Positions 1,097 to 63,809 of a stretch of 64,000 bases of DNA are shown one piece after another. This stretch comes from an uncultured archaeon (GTDB taxonomy: Archaea; Iainarchaeota; Iainarchaeia; Iainarchaeales; VGJJ01), in NCBI GenBank assembly GCA_964557045.1, contig CAZKYB010000002.1, positions 1,212-65,211 of the forward strand, written 5' to 3'. The notes below the pieces were generated by a model that worked only from the letters and a program-made list of their open reading frames with translations, made no database searches and had not been told where the DNA came from. The position numbers were made by a program, and so were the translations under genes. Positions within the stretch are counted from its first letter, which is position 1; each line of letters opens with the position of its first letter.

Positions 1097-2662
1097 ATGA
1101 ATCCCACGAACAACCCCGTTGAAGGCGTCGTACTGGGACGCGGGCCCCATGCCATTATTCGAGAGGGATTCCCGTACAACCTCTATGATATCCACCGCGA
1201 CGAATTGAGCGAGGATGAGAAAAAACTCGCCCTCGCCCTCTCCTCCGCCCTCAACCGAAGCGCGCACACGGATGAATGGACCCAACTCATCCCCCCTAGT
1301 TTCCCCCGCACATTCCCGGGAGCATTCAAGACCCGTATTCTTTCCCTTTCAGATTCCATGGAGTTGGTTGAGAAACTTCCCGCAGACGAAGACTATGCGA
1401 TGCTCGCACGCAAGCTGAAGGAAATACTAGAAGAATACAAGGCCCCCGTGAAAAACATGGATGCCTTCATCACCCGCGTCTTGGATGACGGAATCGGATA
1501 CGGATACTTAGGCGAGCCCATGCGCGACCCCGACTTGGAAGAAGTCATGGTGAATGGCGCCACGCGCAACGTGTTCGTGTATCATCGGAAACACGGAATG
1601 TGTAAGACCGATATTCCCGTGGTCCCCCACGACGCCAGCATCCTTCGCATTGTATCCAAAGCGGCGAAGTTTGCAGGGAGAGGATTCGGGGATCGAGAAC
1701 CCCTGTTGGATGCACGCTTGCCCGATGGATCTCGACTGAATGCGACCTTTGAAACCGTCACTCCCTTTGGTCACTCCCTCACGATACGAAAATACACCTC
1801 GGAAAATCTCTCGATGGTGGAACTGATTGCTAAAGGAACCCTCTCAACGGAGCTCGCCGCGTTCCTCTGGATCATGGTGGAGGGAATGAATGTTCAACCC
1901 ATGAATTTGATTGTTACCGGTGGAAGCGGGTGCGGAAAAACGACCCTCTTGAATGCCCTCTCCACCGTTATCCGCTACCGGGAACGAATCATCTCCATCG
2001 AAGACACGACGGAGTTACAATTCAAGGGACGAGAAAATTGGGTGGCGATGGAGTCTCGCCCATCCATTGGAACGACGCAGGGAGTGAGCATGAATGATTT
2101 GCTCAAGAACTCCATGCGCATGCGACCCGACCGAATCATTGTGGGAGAAGTGCGCGGAGAGGAAGCCCAAACACTTTTCGTGGCCATGGACACCGGACAC
2201 CAAGGATGCTTGGGAACATTACACTCCAACACCGCCCGAGAGATGCTCGTCCGACTCACGACGGAACCCATGAATGTCCCTCAAACACTGGTGCACTTGC
2301 TCAACCTCATCGTGGTCCTGCAGAAAGTCTACGACCCCAAGGAAGGGATGAAACGCCGAGTCATGCAGGTCGCGGAAGTCACGCATTTGGATCAGAACGT
2401 GCTATTGTCCAATCTCTTCGAAAGAAACCCCGACACGGACGTTATCCTCCGCACGGACACCCCGTCGCACACCATGCAGGAGTTGGCCGACATTTCCGGG
2501 AAGAGCAAGACGAGAGTCATCCAGGAATTGGAAGTCCGAGAGAAGATTCTAGAATGGATGCTCAAACATAACATTCGCTCGGCGGTGGACGTGGAGAAGG
2601 TCATCCAGCAATACTATTTCGACCCCCAATCCGTACTTGAGCTTGTCAATCAGGACCTCTGA
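1097..2662 (+). CDS. Type IV pilus/archaellum-family secretion ATPase (FlaI/PilB/GspE-like), 521 aa.
   Basis: Walker A LIVTGGSGCGKTT, Asp box, His box (RIIVGEVRGEEAQTLFVAMDTGHQGCLGTLH), and the GspE/FlaI N2 domain motif VMVNGATRNVFVYHRKHGMCKTDI. No archaellin or FlaJ genes are adjacent. Confidence 0.85.
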   Translation: MNPTNNPVEGVVLGRGPHAIIREGFPYNLYDIHRDELSEDEKKLALALSSALNRSAHTDEWTQLIPPSFPRTFPGAFKTRILSLSDSMELVEKLPADEDYAMLARKLKEILEEYKAPVKNMDAFITRVLDDGIGYGYLGEPMRDPDLEEVMVNGATRNVFVYHRKHGMCKTDIPVVPHDASILRIVSKAAKFAGRGFGDREPLLDARLPDGSRLNATFETVTPFGHSLTIRKYTSENLSMVELIAKGTLSTELAAFLWIMVEGMNVQPMNLIVTGGSGCGKTTLLNALSTVIRYRERIISIEDTTELQFKGRENWVAMESRPSIGTTQGVSMNDLLKNSMRMRPDRIIVGEVRGEEAQTLFVAMDTGHQGCLGTLHSNTAREMLVRLTTEPMNVPQTLVHLLNLIVVLQKVYDPKEGMKRRVMQVAEVTHLDQNVLLSNLFERNPDTDVILRTDTPSHTMQELADISGKSKTRVIQELEVREKILEWMLKHNIRSAVDVEKVIQQYYFDPQSVLELVNQDL

Positions 2663-2702
2663 AAACGGTGGATTTTTAACGAGTAAAAGCCTACTTGAGG
2701 AA

Positions 2703-3509
2703 ATGAAATCCCCTATTCTCTTGGCGTGTTTTTTGGTCCTAGTATCATTCGGAATGCTTGTCCATGCAGACGCGTCATTGGTTGATCCGGTCGTGGAGAA
2801 GGCCAAGCCCAATGGAATATTGGACGCCGGAAGCATCTCCCCCGGAGAAAAAGTCGAACTCATCTTTTCACGCAACTCAGGATATGGGAAAGACGTCCTG
2901 TGGAACCAAGCCATCCTCTCCCTCAATGGAAACGCCAATGGGATTCAAACCTTTGATTCCGAAGAGGGAAGCGAATCCCTCATCACGCGAATTCAAACCA
3001 GCCCCCTCACGCGAGAAGGGGATTACACCTTCAACGTGCAGCTCGTCGGAGAAGAAGGCGTGCTCGAAAATGAAATGTACACGGTCAAGTTGAGCGTGAA
3101 AAAAGGATTATTGAAAGGAAGCCTCTCCGCGGAAAACGTGCAGGGGCGAGTCAACCAACCGTTGAGTTTTACCGTATTATTAGTGAACGATTCCTCCGCC
3201 CCCGTGAACGTATTGGTGCAACCGGCCCTCCCCACGGTTTGGAGCGAGGCACAAACCATTGCCATGAAGCCCCATTCTTTTGTTACCGTGCCCATTGTGG
3301 TGGTTCCTCGATTTGCGGGACCCAAGACGTTTGACATTACCCTTGTGCGCACGGATAATCGCGCGACGGTGGACACACTCCACGCCACATTAGTAGCCAA
3401 CCCCACATTGAAAGACCGGTATTCGGCGGGACTGTATGGGTTTCCCTTCTTCGCCGTGTCGTTGGTTTCCCACTACCTGGCGAATGCATTCTTCAGCTTC
3501 TTGCTCTGA
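2703..3509 (+). CDS. Secreted or surface protein with an N-terminal Sec-type signal peptide, two beta-rich Ig-like regions and a C-terminal hydrophobic anchor. Function unknown.
   Basis: MKSPILLACFLVLVSFGMLVHADA signal peptide (start moved from the ORF-track 2637 to the ATG at 2703). The C-terminus GLYGFPFFAVSLVSHYLANAFFSFLL is hydrophobic. It lies immediately downstream of the pilus ATPase. Confidence 0.5.
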   Translation: MKSPILLACFLVLVSFGMLVHADASLVDPVVEKAKPNGILDAGSISPGEKVELIFSRNSGYGKDVLWNQAILSLNGNANGIQTFDSEEGSESLITRIQTSPLTREGDYTFNVQLVGEEGVLENEMYTVKLSVKKGLLKGSLSAENVQGRVNQPLSFTVLLVNDSSAPVNVLVQPALPTVWSEAQTIAMKPHSFVTVPIVVVPRFAGPKTFDITLVRTDNRATVDTLHATLVANPTLKDRYSAGLYGFPFFAVSLVSHYLANAFFSFLL

Positions 3510-8694: not shown

Positions 8695-10053
8695 ATGAAT
8701 CAGATCGCCCATTTCGATCGCGCCAAACTACTCCGAGAACTCAAAAACAGCCCATTCAATCAGGAGACCGATAAAGTTATGCGGGCCCTTGACGGGCTCG
8801 CGAAGAAGTTAGAGGGGGGATACAAACTCGATGTGAACCCCGACGAAATCATCCAGAAGTTCGCCCAAAATCCCGCGGACGAAATTGAAATTCGTAAGCT
8901 GTTCGCGGTGCGACCCTTTAGGATTTTCTTCACCACATCCCTATCTCAAAATGGAGAACTCATAATTACTGCGTTCCTAGGAGCGCGCCCTGAAGAACTG
9001 GCTCAACGAAGAAAAACATTACGAAATGCCAACAAACACCTATTCCACGGATTCTTGGCATCGAACGCCAAACTCAAACGACGAAAGGGATTTGCAGAAG
9101 ATATGCTTAAACTTGCCCGAGAAACCGAACACACCGCGTATGCAAAATTCTATGTAACTCCATATAATCGCGGCAAGGGAAAAAGGGAAATTGCCATTAT
9201 TATGCACCCATTCCAGCGAGCACGACTGGTATATGACCCGTCCAGTGAAATCCAATACACCAAATTCAATCATCGCGTCAAAAGAGTAAAAGGAATGCTT
9301 ACTCACCTACTGCACTCCAATAACCCCACCCTCAACAAGGCCCGACCAACAATTCAACAACTTTTACTCGCGATACAACAAGTTGGCGACTCTGCCACTC
9401 ATGAGGGAGAAGGATTCAAGAATAGCCTATCCGTACTTGACGCCCTCATTCGAGGCGTTCGTAAATCCCCTGATCTAAAAGTCGTAACAGCCACTCGAGA
9501 AAAAATGAGCCGCCAAGACCCCGCCAAGAGTCAAGGGAAACCAACTCTCCGAGGGACCGAACACCTTCGAACAATTCTATTACGTTTCAGAGGAGATGCC
9601 ATACATGTAAGGAACATGTACAAACGCAAGGGAAACGAACACCCCTATGCCAGTGCAGGAAACATATCGGGACGAAGGAGAGAACTCGTGCTATACCTCG
9701 TATCCGGTCTCGCTCGACGGGCATTTGAGGAGGTATTCCGAATCCCAGCCTATCGATATATGCTATCGCCCAATCAGATTGGCTCCATTCGCCTAATGAA
9801 AGAAAGAGGGCAGATACGAGAAAAGATTAAGGCATTCCCAGAACAGCTCATGAAAAGGCAAAAACGAATAACCGAGCCCCTTACAATCCCATTGAACCCC
9901 GTAACACCTAGCGGCGAATCATTGGACCCTGTTCCATTTACCCTCGACATGGTTTCACTCGATCGACGCAAAATAATCATTGCCCAACGCCAGCTCGAAA
10001 AAAGAAAGAAAAAAAGAGAAATGCGAAAAAACTCACGAAAAAGAAATCGGTAG
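8695..10053 (+). CDS. Hypothetical 452-aa protein with a very basic C-terminal tail and no recognisable domain. Its AT content is locally higher than its neighbours.
   Basis: Long clean ORF with a TATA-like ttattaatc about 30 nt upstream. The C-terminus is KRKKKREMRKNSRKRNR. There is weak RelE/Gp49-like resemblance around FRIFFTT...ELIITAFLGARPEE, stated at low confidence. Confidence 0.5.
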   Translation: MNQIAHFDRAKLLRELKNSPFNQETDKVMRALDGLAKKLEGGYKLDVNPDEIIQKFAQNPADEIEIRKLFAVRPFRIFFTTSLSQNGELIITAFLGARPEELAQRRKTLRNANKHLFHGFLASNAKLKRRKGFAEDMLKLARETEHTAYAKFYVTPYNRGKGKREIAIIMHPFQRARLVYDPSSEIQYTKFNHRVKRVKGMLTHLLHSNNPTLNKARPTIQQLLLAIQQVGDSATHEGEGFKNSLSVLDALIRGVRKSPDLKVVTATREKMSRQDPAKSQGKPTLRGTEHLRTILLRFRGDAIHVRNMYKRKGNEHPYASAGNISGRRRELVLYLVSGLARRAFEEVFRIPAYRYMLSPNQIGSIRLMKERGQIREKIKAFPEQLMKRQKRITEPLTIPLNPVTPSGESLDPVPFTLDMVSLDRRKIIIAQRQLEKRKKKREMRKNSRKRNR

Positions 10054-10106: not shown

Positions 10107-10886
10107 CTATTTGTGTCCGCGAAGACCTGCGTGCTTTCGCTTCGCGTATTCGTGACCTCTCACGAGTTCAAATCGGTTCATGTACAAGATTGTTTTCAGG
10201 ATCTCCAAGAATGGAATAACAAAGCCGAACATCAACAAAACCGAGATGTATCTTCCGGCATACACAAAGGAATCAATGAACGCCTCCACTAAGGGAAGCA
10301 ACCCCACGAGAACGGTACCCAAGACCACGACTAAGAGGAACTCAAAGAAGTTTTGGCGAATCACATACCAGTTGGTTAATACGGCCTCACGAATGGGCTT
10401 CTCATCAATCACCAAGGATTGAGGGACGAAGACGAGGGAAATAGAAACCAACAGCAAGAGGGCGTTGAGCCCAAGAATGGGAATGTGAAACATACTCCCA
10501 AGGATTACGAGTGCAATGAACACCACGGACAGCAAGACAAAGTACATGAACATGGTCACGAAGAACTTCTGCACCATCTCACGCAAGTAGTAGCGCACCT
10601 TGATGTGGGACATGTCATTGCGCACCGCAAGAATGAGCAAGGTCAAGAGAATCGAATACATGGCGATGAAAACCAATCCCGCCAACACCTCCGCCAGCAC
10701 CACTTCCCAGGCTAAAGGAAAGAAGGAGTAGTCAAAGAAGATGGTCCCGTTGAACAAGGACATATTTCCAAAGCGCAAAAAGAAGAAAACGAAAACAAGC
10801 AGGATGGCAAAGGAGAGGGAGAGCTTGAGATTCTCACGATACTGATGGTGGACCTGCTCCACCAATGAAAATTCCCCTCGAACCAT
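10107..10886 (-). CDS. Polytopic membrane protein (about 6-7 TM), unknown function. Last gene of the pilin-like operon.
   Basis: 259 aa and almost entirely hydrophobic helices. It shares strand and tight spacing with 10964..11497 and 11542..13146. Confidence 0.55.
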   Translation of the reverse strand: MVRGEFSLVEQVHHQYRENLKLSLSFAILLVFVFFFLRFGNMSLFNGTIFFDYSFFPLAWEVVLAEVLAGLVFIAMYSILLTLLILAVRNDMSHIKVRYYLREMVQKFFVTMFMYFVLLSVVFIALVILGSMFHIPILGLNALLLLVSISLVFVPQSLVIDEKPIREAVLTNWYVIRQNFFEFLLVVVLGTVLVGLLPLVEAFIDSFVYAGRYISVLLMFGFVIPFLEILKTILYMNRFELVRGHEYAKRKHAGLRGHK

Positions 10887-10963: not shown

Positions 10964-11497
10964 TTAGAGAAGGTGGGGGAGTTTCTCTTTCCAATAGGAA
11001 TGAATCAACACATAGGAGACCCACCCCAGAAGCGCGGACAAGACGAACAGGAAAAAGGGAGAGGGAAGCAGCTGCTCCACGAAATGACTCGAGACAAACG
11101 TCCACGTGGGACCAAACGAATAGAACCCCGGACTCGGCTTGCCCTGCACCATCGCCGTGAGAAAGGCGTTGTTCCAGAAATACCCAATCAGGGCGATGAA
11201 AAACGTCACGTAGGAAATGATCACAAAACCCAACGCAAAAGGGACCGACAAAATCTGTTCATCCTTGAAGTGGCGCAAATACCAAGAGATGGAAACCCAG
11301 GCAAACAGGAAACCAATCAGGGGAATCAACCACAGCAAGGGATCCACAAAAACATACCCGTCAAAGGGCTTTCCCGAGAAGAATGATTGACCATACCCGT
11401 CCCACTTGGGCAGAAAGGACAAGGAGGCGTAAAGAAGATAGAGAAAGACATACGACACCACTACGAGAATACCACCCTTCACGTGACGGGAATGCAT
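10964..11497 (-). CDS. Polytopic membrane protein (about 4-5 TM), unknown function. Middle gene of the pilin-like operon.
   Basis: 177 aa with hydrophobic helices. It lies 45 nt downstream of the pilin-like gene. Confidence 0.55.
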   Translation of the reverse strand: MHSRHVKGGILVVVSYVFLYLLYASLSFLPKWDGYGQSFFSGKPFDGYVFVDPLLWLIPLIGFLFAWVSISWYLRHFKDEQILSVPFALGFVIISYVTFFIALIGYFWNNAFLTAMVQGKPSPGFYSFGPTWTFVSSHFVEQLLPSPFFLFVLSALLGWVSYVLIHSYWKEKLPHLL

Positions 11498-11541: not shown

Positions 11542-13146
11542 CTACGGAGAATAATAAAACGCACTCATCCCAATCGACGCGAACGTGGAAGAAAATGGCG
11601 AAACCGAGTTTAAGGTGAAGGCACTCGAAGGAGGATTGGGATACCGAATCCCCACAAACATCACATCCGGAGACGCCGGAGCGTTGAGGATGTTGTCCTT
11701 GAACTTCTGCGTGTAGAAATCGTACGGTTGACTGCAGGTGTAAAACCAATCCTCTACATCATCATCGGGATTGGGATCCAAATCCAGAAAACCCATCTTG
11801 GGGCCCCCGGGAAACGGATTCACATCCAGATTAAGCACATTAGGAGAAGCAATCGAGGCGTCCGTCATCAAGGCGCACGCCATCAGGGGATCCGCAATGG
11901 GTGCGGAGGGATTCAAGACATAAAATTCGAGATTCGCCAGCTCGGAGGTGTACCCGTTACACAAGGCCTGTCCGCAGGTCACATCGGGAGTGGTGCCGCA
12001 GGAAGACTTGTACTGAACATCGAACCCATTCACTCCCACCGAAAAAACAGGCGCGAAGTTCTGGAGAAACACCGCCCCTTTGATGGGGGCAATATCCATG
12101 CTGATGAAGGGACCCTTTTTGTTCGGCCCTGTCGAATGCGTGAAAAAGGAATCGACTCCGCTCACGTTGACACAAAACGCACTCTCGTAGGAGTCCCCCA
12201 CGCTACAAACAAACTCTCCTTCAGGCACACCCAAGGATTGACATGCCTCATCGATACTCCCTGAAATGGGACTCGTCGAAGGGGCTGGACAACTGAGCGG
12301 GGAACAATTGGGAGGAAAAATACACCCAAACTGAACATAGGGTGTGCTCGGCGCAGGATTGCCCAGATTCTCGCACTGGAATGAAGACCCGAGCAGGAAT
12401 GGACTCGTGGAGTACCAGGAAAGTTTATCGGCATCCGTGTCCCACCCTTCCTTTACCGTGGTTCCATCAGGTGCGACTTGGGAAACTTTCATAAAAATCT
12501 GAACGGAGACCAAATCCTTGTGGTTGAGATTACCCACGGAAACGATAACCACCTCTTTCTTTGGCTCGGCAGGTGACAACTGAAAGGTTGCGTCGTCAAT
12601 GAAAGAAGATGGAAGTGCATCCAAGTCAGAAAAATCGAACTCCGTGGAGCAGGGACCCGTGAGCTTGACGACGGGACCCGAACCATCATCGCTGGTCTCG
12701 GACTCGCACATGTTTAAGGGAAGCGTTACGCAATTCTCGGTAGCCGGATCACAAACCCCCCCAGCCGGTGTTACGGGAAACTCCAGCGTGATGATGGGGC
12801 CCTGCCCACCATAGAAACTACCTCCGTCACAAATCCCATTCTTGCAGAAAATTTTGAACCCAATCCCATCTAGCTGGAGGGTTCTCCAGGTCGTGTCCTC
12901 GAGAATAAACCCATTCGGCGCCGTGAGCAGACCATCATTCCAATTCAAGTGGAGACTGCACGCCGCGTTGTCGGATCCCGAACAGAGGTCGATCTTCTCA
13001 TACTCCTGAAGATTTTGATCAAACAAACCCCCGCCGTATGGACCTAGAAAAATAAGCAAGAGGAAAACAATCAACGCCACTAAGGAGCCGGCCCCGAGCA
13101 ACAAGAGATACTCGAGAGAGCCCTGCCCAGAGGAAACACGACGCAT
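11542..13146 (-). CDS. Large (534 aa) Cys-rich extracellular protein with an archaeal class III (type IV prepilin-like, DUF361-type) signal peptide. Candidate pilin or adhesin.
   Basis: The N-terminus MRRVSSGQGSLEYLLLLGAGSLVALIVFLLLIFL has G|QxSxEYLLLL with Glu at +5, like EppA/PibD substrates. The ectodomain carries about 24 Cys (CSGSDNAAC, CKNGICDGG, GGVCDPATENC, NCSPLSCP and others). Start moved from 13179 to the internal ATG at 13146. Confidence 0.7.
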   Translation of the reverse strand: MRRVSSGQGSLEYLLLLGAGSLVALIVFLLLIFLGPYGGGLFDQNLQEYEKIDLCSGSDNAACSLHLNWNDGLLTAPNGFILEDTTWRTLQLDGIGFKIFCKNGICDGGSFYGGQGPIITLEFPVTPAGGVCDPATENCVTLPLNMCESETSDDGSGPVVKLTGPCSTEFDFSDLDALPSSFIDDATFQLSPAEPKKEVVIVSVGNLNHKDLVSVQIFMKVSQVAPDGTTVKEGWDTDADKLSWYSTSPFLLGSSFQCENLGNPAPSTPYVQFGCIFPPNCSPLSCPAPSTSPISGSIDEACQSLGVPEGEFVCSVGDSYESAFCVNVSGVDSFFTHSTGPNKKGPFISMDIAPIKGAVFLQNFAPVFSVGVNGFDVQYKSSCGTTPDVTCGQALCNGYTSELANLEFYVLNPSAPIADPLMACALMTDASIASPNVLNLDVNPFPGGPKMGFLDLDPNPDDDVEDWFYTCSQPYDFYTQKFKDNILNAPASPDVMFVGIRYPNPPSSAFTLNSVSPFSSTFASIGMSAFYYSP

Positions 13147-13233
13147 GGACGCAAGCAACTCGACCGGGAATAAAAACAAGCGGGTTGGGGCTCACCCACT
13201 CCCCTAAAAAACCCGGGTGCGCATCCCTACTTC

Positions 13234-26328: not shown

Positions 26329-27165
26329 TTGGGAATGAAATACACGCACGCACTTCTCCTTGCGCTGGTCCTCCTGACGGGGTCCTCGGTCGTATTTGCC
26401 CAAATGGACGGAGGGACTGTCAATTCTTCCATTCTCCTTGCGAATACCCTCCGAGACAATGCCTACAATGTGGTCCTAGTCTCGGCCGCCGCCCTCATCC
26501 TGCTAGTGGTATATTCCATCAAGACCAAGCCCCGCAAGGAGAAAATGAAAAAACTCTTGTTTTGGTCGATTGTGTTTTTCGCCGTGGGAAGCAACCTCTA
26601 TCTCGCAGGGGCTACGCTTTACACCAACCACGTGTCTCCGACCGGGGGACCGGTGCACTGGCACACGGATTTTGAATTATGGAACTGCGGACAATTCCTC
26701 GATGTGGTAGACCCTACCGGCTGGGACAATCGCGTGGGAACGTGGGAAGTCCACGAGCACAATGACAACCGGATGCACATTGAGGGAACCATCCTCGATA
26801 TGGACCAGGCATCCTTCCATCACTTCTTCGAAATTATTGGCGGAACCGTGGATAGAAGCGGGATGAACATCCCCACGATCAATGGAAACGTCAACCTCCC
26901 GGCGCAGGGAATGTGCGGTGGAAAGCGGGCCGAACTGCAAGTGTTCCGATTGTACATCACCAACCCCGAAAGCGCGAAGAATTGGACCTACGTCCAGGAA
27001 AAGCTCGAATTCCCTGAGGGATTGGAGAAGATTATGGCGCCCTATGCCAACGTCCCTCCTGGAGACTGCTTGATTATTGAATATGACACCCCCAAGTCGA
27101 AGACCGCCCATTCTTGCGCGTCCTATCGATCGGCGATGAATCGAGGTGAACTGCATGGCCGTTGA
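26329..27165 (+). CDS. Membrane-anchored exported protein with a His-rich and Cys-containing domain. Possible metal-binding or redox substrate.
   Basis: Signal-like N-terminus plus two further TM helices. The domain carries HWHTDFELWNCGQF, HEHNDNRMHIEG, GMCGG, GDCLII and HSCASY. Its stop overlaps the start of the CcdA-like gene. Confidence 0.5.
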   Translation: MGMKYTHALLLALVLLTGSSVVFAQMDGGTVNSSILLANTLRDNAYNVVLVSAAALILLVVYSIKTKPRKEKMKKLLFWSIVFFAVGSNLYLAGATLYTNHVSPTGGPVHWHTDFELWNCGQFLDVVDPTGWDNRVGTWEVHEHNDNRMHIEGTILDMDQASFHHFFEIIGGTVDRSGMNIPTINGNVNLPAQGMCGGKRAELQVFRLYITNPESAKNWTYVQEKLEFPEGLEKIMAPYANVPPGDCLIIEYDTPKSKTAHSCASYRSAMNRGELHGR

Positions 27166-27865
27166 AGCCTATCTCCCCACACTTGGAACCGTTATCGTGA
27201 CCGCGTTGATTGATTCGATTAATCCCTGCGCGATTGGCGTACTCATCCTCATGATTACGGTGTTGCTCGGGAAAAAGAAAAGCACGCGCGACATGCTGCT
27301 GTTCGGCGGACTCTACATCACGGCGGTCGCCACCACGTATTTCCTCGCGGGATTGGGGTTGATCTATTTCCTCTCCGTTATTCCCTTGTATGTGTCCGAA
27401 TACATCTCCATCGCAGTAGGGTTATTCATCGTCTTCGCGGGATTGTTAGAAGTGAAGGACTTTTTCTGGTACGGAAAAGGATTCTCGCTCCAAATCCCCT
27501 ATGAGTACGCCCAGAAAATCAACAAGTACGCCGAAAATGTCACCGTCCCCGGGGTCATTTTCCTCGGAGCGTTTGTGGCAGCCGTTGAACTCCCCTGCAC
27601 GGGCGCCCCCTACTTGGCCATCATCACGCTGCTCTCTCAATACTTCGACTTCACGGCCTTGTTGTTGCTGATCCTCTACAACATTATCTTCGTATCCCCC
27701 CTCATTGTCATCCTGTTGGCAGTGGCAGCTGGACGAAAAGTCGCGGACTTCAAGAAATTCAAGGAAGAGAACAAGGGATACATGCGCCTCCTGATTGGAC
27801 TATTACTCATCTCCATGGGCTGGCTCCTCATCCTTATCTCGAATGGAACCATCAACTTCGGGTGA
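27155..27865 (+). CDS. ccdA: CcdA/DsbD-family membrane thiol-disulfide electron transporter.
   Basis: Conserved Cys in TM1 (SINPCAIGVL) and TM4 (ELPCTGAPY). About 6 TM. Start at ATG 27155. Confidence 0.7.
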   Translation: MAVEAYLPTLGTVIVTALIDSINPCAIGVLILMITVLLGKKKSTRDMLLFGGLYITAVATTYFLAGLGLIYFLSVIPLYVSEYISIAVGLFIVFAGLLEVKDFFWYGKGFSLQIPYEYAQKINKYAENVTVPGVIFLGAFVAAVELPCTGAPYLAIITLLSQYFDFTALLLLILYNIIFVSPLIVILLAVAAGRKVADFKKFKEENKGYMRLLIGLLLISMGWLLILISNGTINFG

Positions 27866-30262: not shown

Positions 30263-31081
30263 ATGATCCCCCAGCTTGCATTCTTCGTGAACGTGGTAGT
30301 CGGGGCCATCAGTGCCTACACGGACATCAAAACAGGATACATCTACGACTGGATCACGTATCCCCTCATCGCCATTGGAATCATCCTCACCATTATCACC
30401 CAGCAGTGGATTGGACTTTTACTCGCGGGGTTGATTTATGGGGTTGGATGGTTGGCGTATCGCTCAGGCAAAATGGGCGGAGGAGACATCAAGCTCCTCG
30501 CCGGAATGGCCCTTGTACAACCCACCTATGAGGGGATGATTTTCCCCCTCGCCGTACTGCTGATTGGCGCCCTGAGCGCATGTATGGTGTTTTGCCTGTA
30601 TTACGTGGGAGGATTTCTCCTCAGCAAGCCCAAAATCCACTGGAACACCCCTCGGAAGAAAGGAGCGGGAATTCTCCTTGTGGTTTTTGTTGCATTGTTC
30701 CTGTACATGAACGCCCAACTCCCCGCGGGGGGGATTACACTCCTCTTGCTGGAAATCGCATTGATAATAGGATTGATTTTCTACGCCTTTGAAGAGGAAG
30801 TGAAAAAACACGCCTTCCTCAAACGAATTCCACTCAATGAATTAGACGAAGACGAAGTCTTAGCCATTGAACACCTCACGAAAGAAGAAAAAGAAAAATG
30901 GGGGACCAAAATAAGCGATTTGATTTCGCGAGAAGACATTCCCGCGCTCAAGCACAAGGGACTCTCTACCATTCCCGTGTATCGCAACCTCCCCAAGTTC
31001 GCCCCGTTCTTACTTGTGGGGATACTCGCGACGTATCTCTTCCCGGAATGGATCTCCCAAATCGTGCCAAGCTTTTTATAA
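30263..31081 (+). CDS. Type IV prepilin/preflagellin peptidase (A24 family, PibD/FlaK/EppA-like).
   Basis: Polytopic membrane protein with two catalytic Asp contexts (YTDIKTGYIYDW; GGGDIKLLAG). Confidence 0.8.
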   Translation: MIPQLAFFVNVVVGAISAYTDIKTGYIYDWITYPLIAIGIILTIITQQWIGLLLAGLIYGVGWLAYRSGKMGGGDIKLLAGMALVQPTYEGMIFPLAVLLIGALSACMVFCLYYVGGFLLSKPKIHWNTPRKKGAGILLVVFVALFLYMNAQLPAGGITLLLLEIALIIGLIFYAFEEEVKKHAFLKRIPLNELDEDEVLAIEHLTKEEKEKWGTKISDLISREDIPALKHKGLSTIPVYRNLPKFAPFLLVGILATYLFPEWISQIVPSFL

Positions 31082-47501: not shown

Positions 47502-48440
47502 TCAGTATTTCCCTTCGGCCTGGAGCTTTTCCAGATACCATTCGGCTTCCAATGCCGCCTGGCAACCGGTTCCAGCCGAAGTAATGGCTTGCTTGTAGCG
47601 AGGATCCATCACATCCCCGGCGGCATAAATCCCGGGAACACTCGTACGGACACCATTTCCTTTGATGAAACCCTCTTCGGTCAACTCAATCAATCCCTTC
47701 AAGAAACCCGTGTTGGGAATGTGACCAATCGCGAGAAAAACCCCGTCGGTGGCCAGCGTGGATTCTTTTCCCGAATTCACATCCTTAATTTTCAACCCCT
47801 TCACCAATTTTTCCCCCGTGACCTCAACAGGGACCGTGTTCCACAGCACGGAAATCTTATCCTTCAGACCTAACACCCGATCCTGCATGATTTGAGAGGC
47901 TTTGAACTCGTCGCGGCGGTGGACAATGTACACTTTGCTCGCAAACTTGTACAGGGCCATACTTTCTTCCATCGCCGAGTCGCCGCCCCCAATCACCACG
48001 GCGGTTTTACCCCGATATAAGGCCGCATCACACACCGCGCACGTACTTACCCCCCGACCAAAAAATTGCTTTTCACCCGGAATGCCTGTTTTACGCGCGG
48101 AGGCGCCCGTGCAAATGATTAAGGTGCGCGACTGGAATTTTTCATCCTCACTTGTAACAATCTCAAACCCGCCGGCCATCTTTTTGACACTTGTAACTTG
48201 AGCGTTCTTGTATTCGGCCCCAAAACGCTGCGCCTGTTTCTTGGCATTCTCAATCAAATCCGGACCATTAATCCCTTCAGGAAACCCGGGAAAATTCTCC
48301 ACAATCGTGGTCAAACTCAACTGATCCGGCTCATCCCCCGAAAGAACGAGTGGAGAAAGAGACGCACGTGCCGTGTATATCGCGGCCGTGTGAGCGGAAA
48401 TACCCCCGCCGATAATAATTACATCACGCATGGACGACAT
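47502..48440 (-). CDS. trxB: Thioredoxin reductase.
   Basis: FAD GGGISA, redox-active CAVCDA and NAD GGGDSA motifs. Confidence 0.9.
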   Translation of the reverse strand: MSSMRDVIIIGGGISAHTAAIYTARASLSPLVLSGDEPDQLSLTTIVENFPGFPEGINGPDLIENAKKQAQRFGAEYKNAQVTSVKKMAGGFEIVTSEDEKFQSRTLIICTGASARKTGIPGEKQFFGRGVSTCAVCDAALYRGKTAVVIGGGDSAMEESMALYKFASKVYIVHRRDEFKASQIMQDRVLGLKDKISVLWNTVPVEVTGEKLVKGLKIKDVNSGKESTLATDGVFLAIGHIPNTGFLKGLIELTEEGFIKGNGVRTSVPGIYAAGDVMDPRYKQAITSAGTGCQAALEAEWYLEKLQAEGKY

Positions 48441-62608: not shown

Positions 62609-62914
62609 TCAATCCAGAATTATACGGTTTGAAAAACGACCCCGCGACCTCGCCTTGATTAATTGCTGACGAAGCAAGGAGGCACGATCTATCTTCTCAA
62701 AGGAACAAATCGCATCAATCACTTCCAAAATATCCCCCAATTCTTCGGAAGACCCGGAATCGAGAAACTCATGCACTTCTTCCAAAAGCTTCGCCCGCAA
62801 CGCCGACGCATATTCAGCCTCCGACGCCACATGGGTAGAAAGATGCTCGCCCTTCTCTCGGGCAATCTCTGGAATCCGATCCCGAATGAGCTTAGACGTA
62901 AAACACAACCTCAC
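62609..62914 (-). CDS. MazG-like all-alpha nucleotide pyrophosphohydrolase.
   Basis: KLIRDRIPEI...LLEEVHEF...EELGDILEVIDAI matches the MazG/HisE-like pattern. Confidence 0.55.
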   Translation of the reverse strand: MRLCFTSKLIRDRIPEIAREKGEHLSTHVASEAEYASALRAKLLEEVHEFLDSGSSEELGDILEVIDAICSFEKIDRASLLRQQLIKARSRGRFSNRIILD

Positions 62915-63153
62915 GGAATATTCAACAACTTCTTCAACGCGGGCTTATCAAAACCTACGACCACCTTGTTGTCAACCAACGTCACGGGAACACCGGACTG
63001 GCCGGACTTCATAATCATCTCTTGCGCCGCCTGCGTATCCTCGGCGACATTCACTTCCGTGAAAGCAAACTTATGCTCCTTGAGAAAATCCTTCTCCAAC
63101 CGACAGTAGGGACACGTGGGAGTGGAATAGATGGTGATTTTAGGAGCAGCCAT
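62911..63153 (-). CDS. Glutaredoxin-like protein (CPYC).
   Basis: KITIYSTPTCPYCR...GVPVTLVD. Start moved to MAAPKITIY. Confidence 0.75.
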   Translation of the reverse strand: MAAPKITIYSTPTCPYCRLEKDFLKEHKFAFTEVNVAEDTQAAQEMIMKSGQSGVPVTLVDNKVVVGFDKPALKKLLNIP

Positions 63154-63230: not shown

Positions 63231-63749
63231 CTACCCAGATGAATTGACTTCCACCAGAAGCTTCTCAATCACAGCCTTGAACTCGGCCGCTTCCGCATCC
63301 AAATCATCCTGCGTCTCATACGCATTCCCCACCCTCCAATACTTACACCCAAACAAATACGTGGGAACACTCTGCTGGGGATTCGTGGACGTGAACAAGT
63401 CTACTTCGGCCTTCGGAACCGCTGTTTCCTTTGCCGCTGTATACTGATTATTCCCAATGTCCAAATCCCAATGATACGCGGCAATCAGACCTTTGGCCTT
63501 GTACTCATCCATCACCCCATTAAACGTGGCATTCACCCAACGACAATGCGGACAGACCGTGGTCGAATACAATCGAATGATGGGCTTTCCATCCTCCGTA
63601 CAAATAGTGGCATTCGGAAGGGTCTGGAACGTGGTAATCGACGAAGGAGCGATTCCAGAAGTATCGGTCGACTCATACTTGGACGAGACGCACCCGGAGA
63701 GAAAAAGCAATACAAGAGCGGAAATCAAGAGAATCAGTTTCGTGTTCAT
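63231..63749 (-). CDS. Thioredoxin-fold lipoprotein (CxxC), extracytoplasmic.
   Basis: Lipobox MNTKLILLISALVLLFLSGC and a TTVCPHCRW redox motif. Confidence 0.7.
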   Translation of the reverse strand: MNTKLILLISALVLLFLSGCVSSKYESTDTSGIAPSSITTFQTLPNATICTEDGKPIIRLYSTTVCPHCRWVNATFNGVMDEYKAKGLIAAYHWDLDIGNNQYTAAKETAVPKAEVDLFTSTNPQQSVPTYLFGCKYWRVGNAYETQDDLDAEAAEFKAVIEKLLVEVNSSG

Positions 63750-63809
63750 CACGCAGAAAGAGTCATTGAAAATAAAAAGGAGTGGGGGAATTTCCCCCCA
63801 CCCCAACTA

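Follow-up and report, generated by a model that had tools for sequence, protein, structure and literature searches.

A probable type IV pilin-like surface protein with a cysteine-rich, hypervariable ectodomain in an Iainarchaeota archaeon

Most DPANN archaea have yet to be cultured, and little is understood of their contacts with other cells. We examined a 64-kb stretch of DNA from an Iainarchaeota (DPANN) archaeon (the window; WIN in the locus comparisons) and, within it, the class III signal open reading frame (ORF) at 11542..13146, which we refer to as the target. We favor, with moderate confidence, the reading that the target is a pilin-like (type IV) surface protein. Its exposed domain, locked by disulfides, would act in adhesion or recognition, with the protein carried on a type IV filament or next to one; incorporation into a filament and the adhesin role are the parts of this reading that we infer.

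Modular pilins that present adhesion modules are widespread, and in these proteins a bulky module is grafted onto a pilin and displayed at the filament tip (PMC8179133). Class III signal proteins that functionalize archaeal type IV filaments have been described, and "System 1" Epd-like machineries have been reported in DPANN (bioRxiv 10.64898/2026.04.22.720090). The action of the archaeal prepilin peptidases PibD and EppA on class III substrates is established (PMC6098224).

The target, its class III signal, and its closest relatives

The target and its parts are as follows:

11542..13146, minus strand: coding sequence of the target, a 534-amino-acid (aa) class III signal peptide protein, from the ORF list and its translation, with a TAG stop at 11542..11544
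13169..13176, minus strand: TATA-like promoter box TTTTTATT, 23 to 30 nt upstream of the ATG
13126..13146, minus strand: leader peptide MRRVSSG, basic and ending in Gly, with predicted prepilin-peptidase cleavage at G7/Q8
13042..13125, minus strand: mature N terminus QGSLEYLLLLGAGSLVALIVFLLLIFLG, with QxSxExxxL and Glu at +5, the sole hydrophobic helix of the protein
11573..13041, minus strand: acidic ectodomain (approximately residues 36 to 524) with 20 conserved cysteines and an isoelectric point (pI) of ∼4.1; also the hypervariable block

An earlier note on this DNA had placed an ORF of 534 aa here, and both the translation and an independent gene call on another assembly (L012), which gave a product of identical length from the ATG, bear this out. 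The TTTTTATT box was kept at the same distance from the ATG in eight related loci (among them L001, L003, L004, L005, L011, L013, and L014), and an alternative TTG start at 13179 overlaps it. Because of this conserved box, 23 to 30 nt upstream of the ATG and overlapped by the TTG, the ATG start is supported and the TTG is unlikely; the short distance would also imply a leaderless or very short-leader mRNA. The next Met after the ATG is residue 146, and residues 1 to 54 are the best-conserved stretch in the alignment of the target family. The start codon that the class III motif depends on is thus upheld by both the promoter box and the conserved N-terminal 54 residues.

Behind the leader MRRVSSG, the sequence QGSLEYLLLLGAGSLVALIVFLLLIFLG fits QxSxExxxL exactly (Q-G-S-L-E-Y-L-L-L), with Q at +1, which is the residue given for this position in the Pfam description of PF04021. 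From this we infer cleavage between G7 and Q8 by a prepilin peptidase. Hydropathy gave one hydrophobic segment in the whole target (residues 14 to 32), the AlphaFold2 (AF2) model has a helix at residues 8 to 34, and Glu+5 is nearly invariant across the family alignment. The target's own match to Pfam Class_IIIsignal (PF04021) was below the gathering threshold (12.9 bits versus 23.7). Across the family, PF04021 matched 12 of the 13 sequences scanned, the target included, at an E value of ≤1 (best, 2.7e-7), and a precomputed PF04021 match was present in two homologues. The prepilin-like N terminus read by the earlier note (QxSxEYLLLL, a DUF361 hallmark) therefore stands on the exact motif and the family matches, with the target's own score sub-threshold.

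When the family profile was compared to 1.84 billion representative proteins, ∼156 further proteins aligned through their first ∼50 residues only. The N-terminus-only relatives that we analyzed (136 among the 150 matches listed) ranged from 54 to 1100 aa, with a median of ∼138 aa, and began GQGALEYLLLIGGAVL; many were pilin-sized (54 to 150 aa). Given this start and this median length, we take them to be ordinary small pilin-like proteins. Among the same matches listed, 25 of the 136 relatives were at least 300 aa long, many of them with 2 to 6% cysteine in even counts. The earlier expectation that pilins of such a type are small and poor in cysteine thus fails for this clade. As a class, large modular proteins with class III signals have been described before, and the target adds a further member to this known kind, because large class III proteins that carry cysteines occur often among its N-terminal relatives.

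Set beside the modular type IV pilins (Streptococcus sanguinis PilB and PilC, CofB of enterotoxigenic Escherichia coli [ETEC], and GspK of the type II secretion system [T2SS]), the target shares a class III signal, a hydrophobic helix with Glu+5, and a bulky extra module. In the modular pilins, the module is presented by the filament, probably at the tip, and is adhesive (PMC8179133). CofB and the target are further alike in that the extra part is beta-rich and has no database domain match. The target differs from this group in being archaeal, with Q at +1 (PF04021/DUF361) and not of the bacterial IPR012902 type, and in having ten predicted disulfides, no separable canonical pilin head that we could detect, and no surrounding pilus operon. 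With the archaeal PF04021 pilins that have EppA-type peptidases (Methanococcus maripaludis Epd), it shares QxSxExxxL with Q at +1, and its genome likewise encodes a cognate A24 peptidase (PMC6098224). However, Epd pilins are small, whereas the target has 534 aa and a Pfam score of its own below the gathering threshold, and the Epd-type operon (ATPase, two platform genes, and pilins) was not seen at the target locus.

Cysteines, fold, and distribution of the ectodomain

The target has 20 cysteines, not the ∼24 given by the earlier note, and the clustered CxC pattern reported there is absent: the shortest spacing is Cx4C, and 8 of the 19 gaps are Cx4-7C. Reading the target sequence through also gave no CxxC or CxxCxxC. 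Cysteine content was the highest of all window ORFs, at 3.75% compared to 0.93% in the 54 others (a 4-fold enrichment; binomial P value of ∼3e-7). The enrichment is therefore real, although "extremely" cysteine-rich, as the protein had been called, is an overstatement.

Conservation of the cysteines was examined in an alignment of 19 family sequences, of which 2 are fragments (mean column identity, 44%). Each of the 20 cysteines was found in 17 to 19 of the 19 sequences, and the set is kept down to ∼30% identity among relatives. Cysteine totals within the family were only even (18, 20, 22, or 24), and changes in number came in pairs. An extra pair at alignment columns 161 and 176 co-occurs in one subclade, one relative (P0015) gains a pair at residues 454 and 464, and another (P0018) is without exactly four cysteines (281, 302, 314, and 325). 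The target has three histidines, none of them conserved, and the ectodomain (pI, ∼4.1) is rich in S, G, P, D, and N and poor in K and R. Disulfides are favored over metal because of the even totals, the paired gain and loss, the lack of CxxC, and the near absence of histidine, and the ectodomain is probably stabilized by ten disulfides and not by metal sites. From the sequence patterns, residues 275 and 286 are predicted to form one pair, and cysteines 281, 302, 314, and 325 to form two pairs among themselves.

A competing explanation would make the target an intracellular or membrane-associated zinc or Fe-S protein, with the class III motif an artifact of a wrong start; the earlier note had itself named such an intracellular metal protein as the finding that would overturn its reading. 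The many strictly conserved cysteines fit this explanation, in that conservation alone would suit metal ligands too. Nonetheless, we consider it extremely improbable. The start is fixed by the conserved promoter box, by the N-terminal 54 residues conserved across the family, and by the distance to the next Met, and a signal peptide is present; metal-binding spacings (CxxC and CxxCxxC) are absent, the only three histidines vary, and the number of cysteines changes strictly by pairs. The target matched no Fe-S or Zn family in Pfam or NCBIfam. The core of the earlier reading, a class III signal fused to a large disulfide-stabilized extracellular domain, agrees with the motif, the pilin-homologous N terminus, the A24 peptidase in the window, and the paired cysteines without metal motifs.

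The ectodomain had no sequence or profile match in Pfam, NCBIfam, or the PDB. The AF2 model, built from 13 sequences (predicted local distance difference test score [pLDDT], 77.8; predicted template modeling score [pTM], 0.71), consists of a long N-terminal helix and then a mainly beta ectodomain, with four strands (residues 80 to 145) after the helix and the C-terminal 200 residues best defined. Compared to the PDB, the full model gave a best E value of 0.015 with template modeling (TM) scores of ≤0.45, and a sub-domain model (residues 56 to 330) gave a best E value of 0.013 with TM scores of ≤0.37; the sub-domain model loses confidence once it is cut out. The viral structures of BFVD gave a single match to the full model (E value, 4e-4; TM score, 0.11). 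Only generic beta-sandwich resemblances (CBM96/CBM32, discoidin, ApaG, and the Eph ligand-binding domain) emerged from these searches, and we did not count them as evidence.

An exhaustive profile search of 1.84 billion proteins found 14 full-length representatives of the family, all in Iainarchaeota-like metagenome-assembled genomes (MAGs) and all from one syntenic locus. Full or partial homologues made up 12 clusters in a set of 5.8 billion proteins, to which a second profile search added no further family members; one of these clusters bears the name Candidatus Diapherotrites. Closer alignment against genome contigs found four loci, with Candidatus Iainarchaeum named among them, and scans of viral contigs and JGI metagenome contigs found no relatives. 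The ectodomain family is undescribed and confined to one DPANN lineage. In every locus fetched, the target is divergent from the replication factor C (RFC) small-subunit gene and is followed by two co-oriented membrane-protein genes (177 and 259 aa in the window) and then by RLI/ABCE1. The target is single copy in every related genome, at this fixed locus amid housekeeping genes. One contig with the same locus (L007; JAGVNS010000025.1), holding a target relative and the 177-aa, 259-aa, and RLI genes, is labeled "Thaumarchaeota archaeon" and is probably a mis-binned or mislabeled DPANN contig.

Divergence of the ectodomain block between genomes

At variable surface loci such as the Pseudomonas pilA allele groups and Neisseria pilE, a conserved N-terminal coding part is joined to a divergent exposed part, and alleles are exchanged by recombination. 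Our main genome comparison was between the window and L001 (GCA_964427715.1) and included nine flanking genes. Protein identity was 94 to 100% for the nine flanking genes and 69% for the target. The proportion of nonsynonymous differences (pN) was 0.000 to 0.032 in the flanks (median, 0.010) and 0.185 in the target, and the proportion of synonymous differences (pS) was 0.08 to 0.46 in the flanks (median, 0.19) and 0.70, which is saturated, in the target. The first 40 codons of the target behaved as the flanks did (pS, 0.09). Nucleotide identity in 60-nt windows was 97 to 100% as far as ∼13043, 40 to 80% from ∼13042 to ∼11573, and back to 97% for the last nine codons of the target and beyond. 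The edges of the divergent block coincide exactly with those of the ectodomain.

Both alleles were found joined to their own flanks in independent assemblies (L002 and L012). Further, the alleles of L001 and L010 were 77% identical, compared to 71% for those of the window and L001, though the window and L001 have the closest flanks; the allele tree therefore conflicts with the flank tree. In each of the seven locus comparisons, covering up to twelve genes, the target had diverged most. Because synonymous sites are saturated within sharp boundaries, the block would be an old allele brought in by recombination, and because the pairwise ratio of nonsynonymous to synonymous rates (dN/dS) is 0.11, the divergence would not be merely the product of relaxed or positive selection. 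The pattern indicates allele exchange at the ectodomain block by recombination.

The target thus resembles the pilA and pilE loci in its conserved N-terminal part, its divergent exposed part, and the exchange of alleles between similar genomes. Unlike at those loci, neither silent donor cassettes nor paralogues of the target were found in the 64-kb window, and the variation is seen between genomes. A diversity-generating retroelement was set aside as the mechanism since the divergence covers the whole 1.47-kb ectodomain and not a short variable repeat; no search specifically for a reverse transcriptase was made. In one metagenome (SRR31968662), three different target alleles (L012, L013, and L014) were present on contigs of 2.2 to 2.7 kb that end in conserved flanks. 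That these three could be strains of a single population was rejected, since L013 and L014 have flanks with only 77 to 80% identity to the window; the three alleles therefore represent co-existing related populations.

Filament machinery, proposed function, and neighboring genes

The candidate processing and assembly genes in the window, and the genes of its redox context, are as follows:

30263..31081, plus strand: type IV prepilin (class III signal) peptidase of family A24 (Pfam Peptidase_A24, 52.6 bits; cut-off, 26.5)
1097..2662, plus strand: FlaI/PilB-type secretion ATPase (T2SSE; Pfam T2SSE E value, 3.5e-40)
27146..27865, plus strand: CcdA/DsbD-type membrane thiol-disulfide electron-transfer protein with two "PC" motifs inside transmembrane segments
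63231..63806, minus strand: thioredoxin-like lipobox (LSGC) protein with a CPHC active-site motif; likely start, ATG at 63749
62914..63153, minus strand: cytoplasmic glutaredoxin (CPYC; Pfam Glutaredoxin, 60.2 bits)
47502..48440: thioredoxin reductase

The A24 peptidase has the aspartate motifs YTDIKTG and GGGDIKLL and is the candidate processing enzyme of the target. The T2SSE ATPase is a candidate filament-assembly motor. Its best NCBIfam match was FlaI-like (270 bits, below the equivalog cut-off), and it lies ∼8 to 10 kb from the target, in synteny, in all long loci. Directly after the ATPase, in place of a platform protein, a gene at 2637..3509 (plus strand) encodes a protein of ∼268 aa that carries a signal peptide and a C-terminal transmembrane segment and weakly matches an Ig-like model (Transglut_C). 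The pairing of the ATPase with this secreted Ig-like protein is kept in all long related loci, ∼8 kb further on from the target block.

The ATPase bears on another alternative, in which the target would be a bindosome-type solute receptor (a substrate-binding protein). Large binding proteins that are not pilins but carry class III signals occur widely across archaea (bioRxiv 10.64898/2026.04.22.720090), and among the best NCBIfam matches of the window ATPase is BasE, a bindosome ATPase (151 bits, far below the cut-off). Yet the target matched no solute-binding-protein family in Pfam or NCBIfam and no such protein in the PDB by sequence or fold. Adjacent genes for an ABC transporter permease and ATPase are also lacking, the neighboring ABC protein being the ribosome-recycling factor RLI/ABCE1. 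In these respects, and in its cysteine-rich, hypervariable ectodomain, the target is unlike the Sulfolobales bindosome proteins GlcS, AraS, and TreS; fast turnover of the ectodomain would be unexpected for a nutrient receptor. We therefore regard a solute receptor as very unlikely.

Many-disulfide extracellular proteins would be routine in these archaea, which raises the question of the oxidizing enzyme, and the CPHC lipoprotein and the CcdA-like protein are the window's candidates. The CPHC lipoprotein, a candidate extracytoplasmic oxidoreductase, gave weak matches to the DsbA structures 4pwo and 4pwp (E value, ∼0.002) and a sub-threshold match to Pfam Thioredoxin. The CcdA-like protein scored 26.3 bits for Pfam DsbD_TM (cut-off, 27.1) and 37.2 for SfLAP (cut-off, 35), with an NCBIfam DsbD E value of 1.6e-5. 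Of the redox genes that the earlier note had listed in support of extracellular disulfides, the CcdA-like, thioredoxin-like lipoprotein, and glutaredoxin genes are present, but no DsbA-like gene other than that of the CPHC lipoprotein was found in the window. A connection of these genes to the target is plausible. The gene immediately before the CcdA-like gene (26329..27165, plus strand), whose end overlaps the CcdA-like start by 20 nt, encodes a secreted or membrane protein of 278 aa with His-rich motifs (HWHTDFELWNCG and HEHNDNRMH), four cysteines, and no family match. A role as a partner of CcdA, linked to metal or redox chemistry, is possible.

We propose the following sequence of events for the target. 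The preprotein would be inserted through Sec, and the A24 prepilin peptidase at 30263..31081 would remove MRRVSSG, leaving a new N-terminal hydrophobic helix (Q8 to ∼G35, with Glu+5) to hold the protein in the membrane. Most likely, this helix would also allow incorporation into a type IV filament, with the target serving, like a modular pilin, as a bulky minor subunit or tip subunit. The acidic ectodomain of ∼490 residues would form a lineage-specific, beta-rich fold locked by ten disulfides; thioredoxin-fold and CcdA-type proteins may form or repair these bonds outside the cell. As the outward, partner-contacting part, it would diverge far faster than its neighbors and be swapped as a cassette between lineages, with putative recombination anchors in the conserved sequence encoding the signal and helix and at the gene's 3′ end. 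The likely job of the protein would be to adhere to another cell or a surface, or to recognize one. Given such a job, the target would likely also be a virus target, and because its exposed domain meets the outside world, it would be expected to turn over fast between lineages.

Several observations weigh against this proposal. The sharp cassette boundary comes from one genome pair, and the drop between L010 and L011 is similar but softer; the overall dN/dS of 0.11 carries no direct signal of positive selection. The AF2 model is of only moderate confidence. Searched with Foldseek, the part of the model behind the helix matched no pilin structure, and no match to an adhesin or lectin fold scored convincingly (best E value, ∼0.01; TM score, ≤0.45), so that the search for such folds called for by the earlier note gave no convincing match in the PDB. 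In the 64-kb window, we found neither a gene for a major pilin nor a second ORF with a class III signal, and no T2SSF-type platform protein was found among the window ORFs tested, including the two genes downstream of the target. The ATPase is ∼9 kb off and not in the operon of the target, and because housekeeping genes lie between the two, its conserved synteny may reflect mere stable gene order. Lastly, the redox genes lie 14 to 50 kb from the target with nothing tying them to it, and CcdA normally supplies reducing, not oxidizing, power.

Some of these points favor the main rival explanation, a structural cell-envelope protein (S-layer-like or wall protein) for which the helix is a mere anchor and the variability results from virus or predator pressure on the coat. 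A single-copy gene at a fixed locus among housekeeping genes, outside any pilus operon, would fit a coat protein, as would the lack of pilin or platform genes nearby and the two conserved membrane proteins that follow. The low pI (∼4.1), the S/T/G/N/D-rich composition, and the strong variation between strains are likewise compatible with a coat, and the loss of confidence in the sub-domain model when it is cut suggests one integrated globular unit. However, small pilins have a homologous helix and Glu+5, and both are conserved in the target family, which a mere anchor would not need. The 534 aa contain only two N-glycosylation sequons, which is modest for an archaeal S-layer protein, and no S-layer family or fold was matched. 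On this evidence, we judge a structural coat protein unlikely, and we retain the pilin-like surface protein as the better account.

A more specific version of the pilin-like reading is offered tentatively. In it, the ectodomain would be an undescribed disulfide-knotted fold that determines partner specificity. As a tip adhesin or as a recognition protein, it may work together with the 177-aa membrane protein that co-varies with it, and its alleles would be kept in populations and moved between lineages as a precise cassette. If true, it would give a testable handle on how an uncultured DPANN lineage picks and holds partners or evades viruses. The combination of a pilin-type anchor, a lineage-specific disulfide-locked domain, and cassette turnover makes the target a good candidate for a contact or recognition molecule and a virus receptor.

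The genes downstream of the target in the window are as follows:

10964..11497, minus strand: 177-aa protein with four predicted transmembrane segments and no cysteine, starting 44 nt after the target stop
10107..10886, minus strand: 259-aa multi-transmembrane protein, highly conserved and in synteny
8695..10053, plus strand: 452-aa K/R-rich, cysteine-free ORF between RLI/ABCE1 and the 259-aa gene

The 177-aa gene always adjoins the target in related loci and is its probable operon partner. Its family has 21 clusters, of which 9 equal a target-family cluster in the size of their longest contig, and the two families therefore largely co-occur. Within the block, only the target evolves faster than this gene, which was second-most diverged in six of the seven locus comparisons, with 77 to 85% protein identity where the RFC and 259-aa proteins are 97 to 100% identical. 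Its product may co-evolve with the target ectodomain. The 259-aa protein is 63 to 99% identical where the target is 23 to 69% identical. Neither membrane protein matched Pfam or the PDB, and the 177-aa protein had no NCBIfam match. We found no support for either as a pilus platform or as a member of a known family, and their PsbK matches are transmembrane-helix noise.

Other differences between loci were seen in this region. The 452-aa ORF, which had no Pfam or NCBIfam match, is absent from every syntenic locus fetched (no tblastn match) and looks like a strain-specific insertion. In a Candidatus Iainarchaeum MAG (L005, 6618..8930, the same region as L008), the RFC small-subunit gene beside the target carries an intein (770 aa; Intein_splicing). 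In L011 (6865..8918), the Nre and RFC genes are separated by inserted HNH endonuclease genes and a 441-aa ORF, and these insertions are a further sign of local mobile-element activity near the locus.

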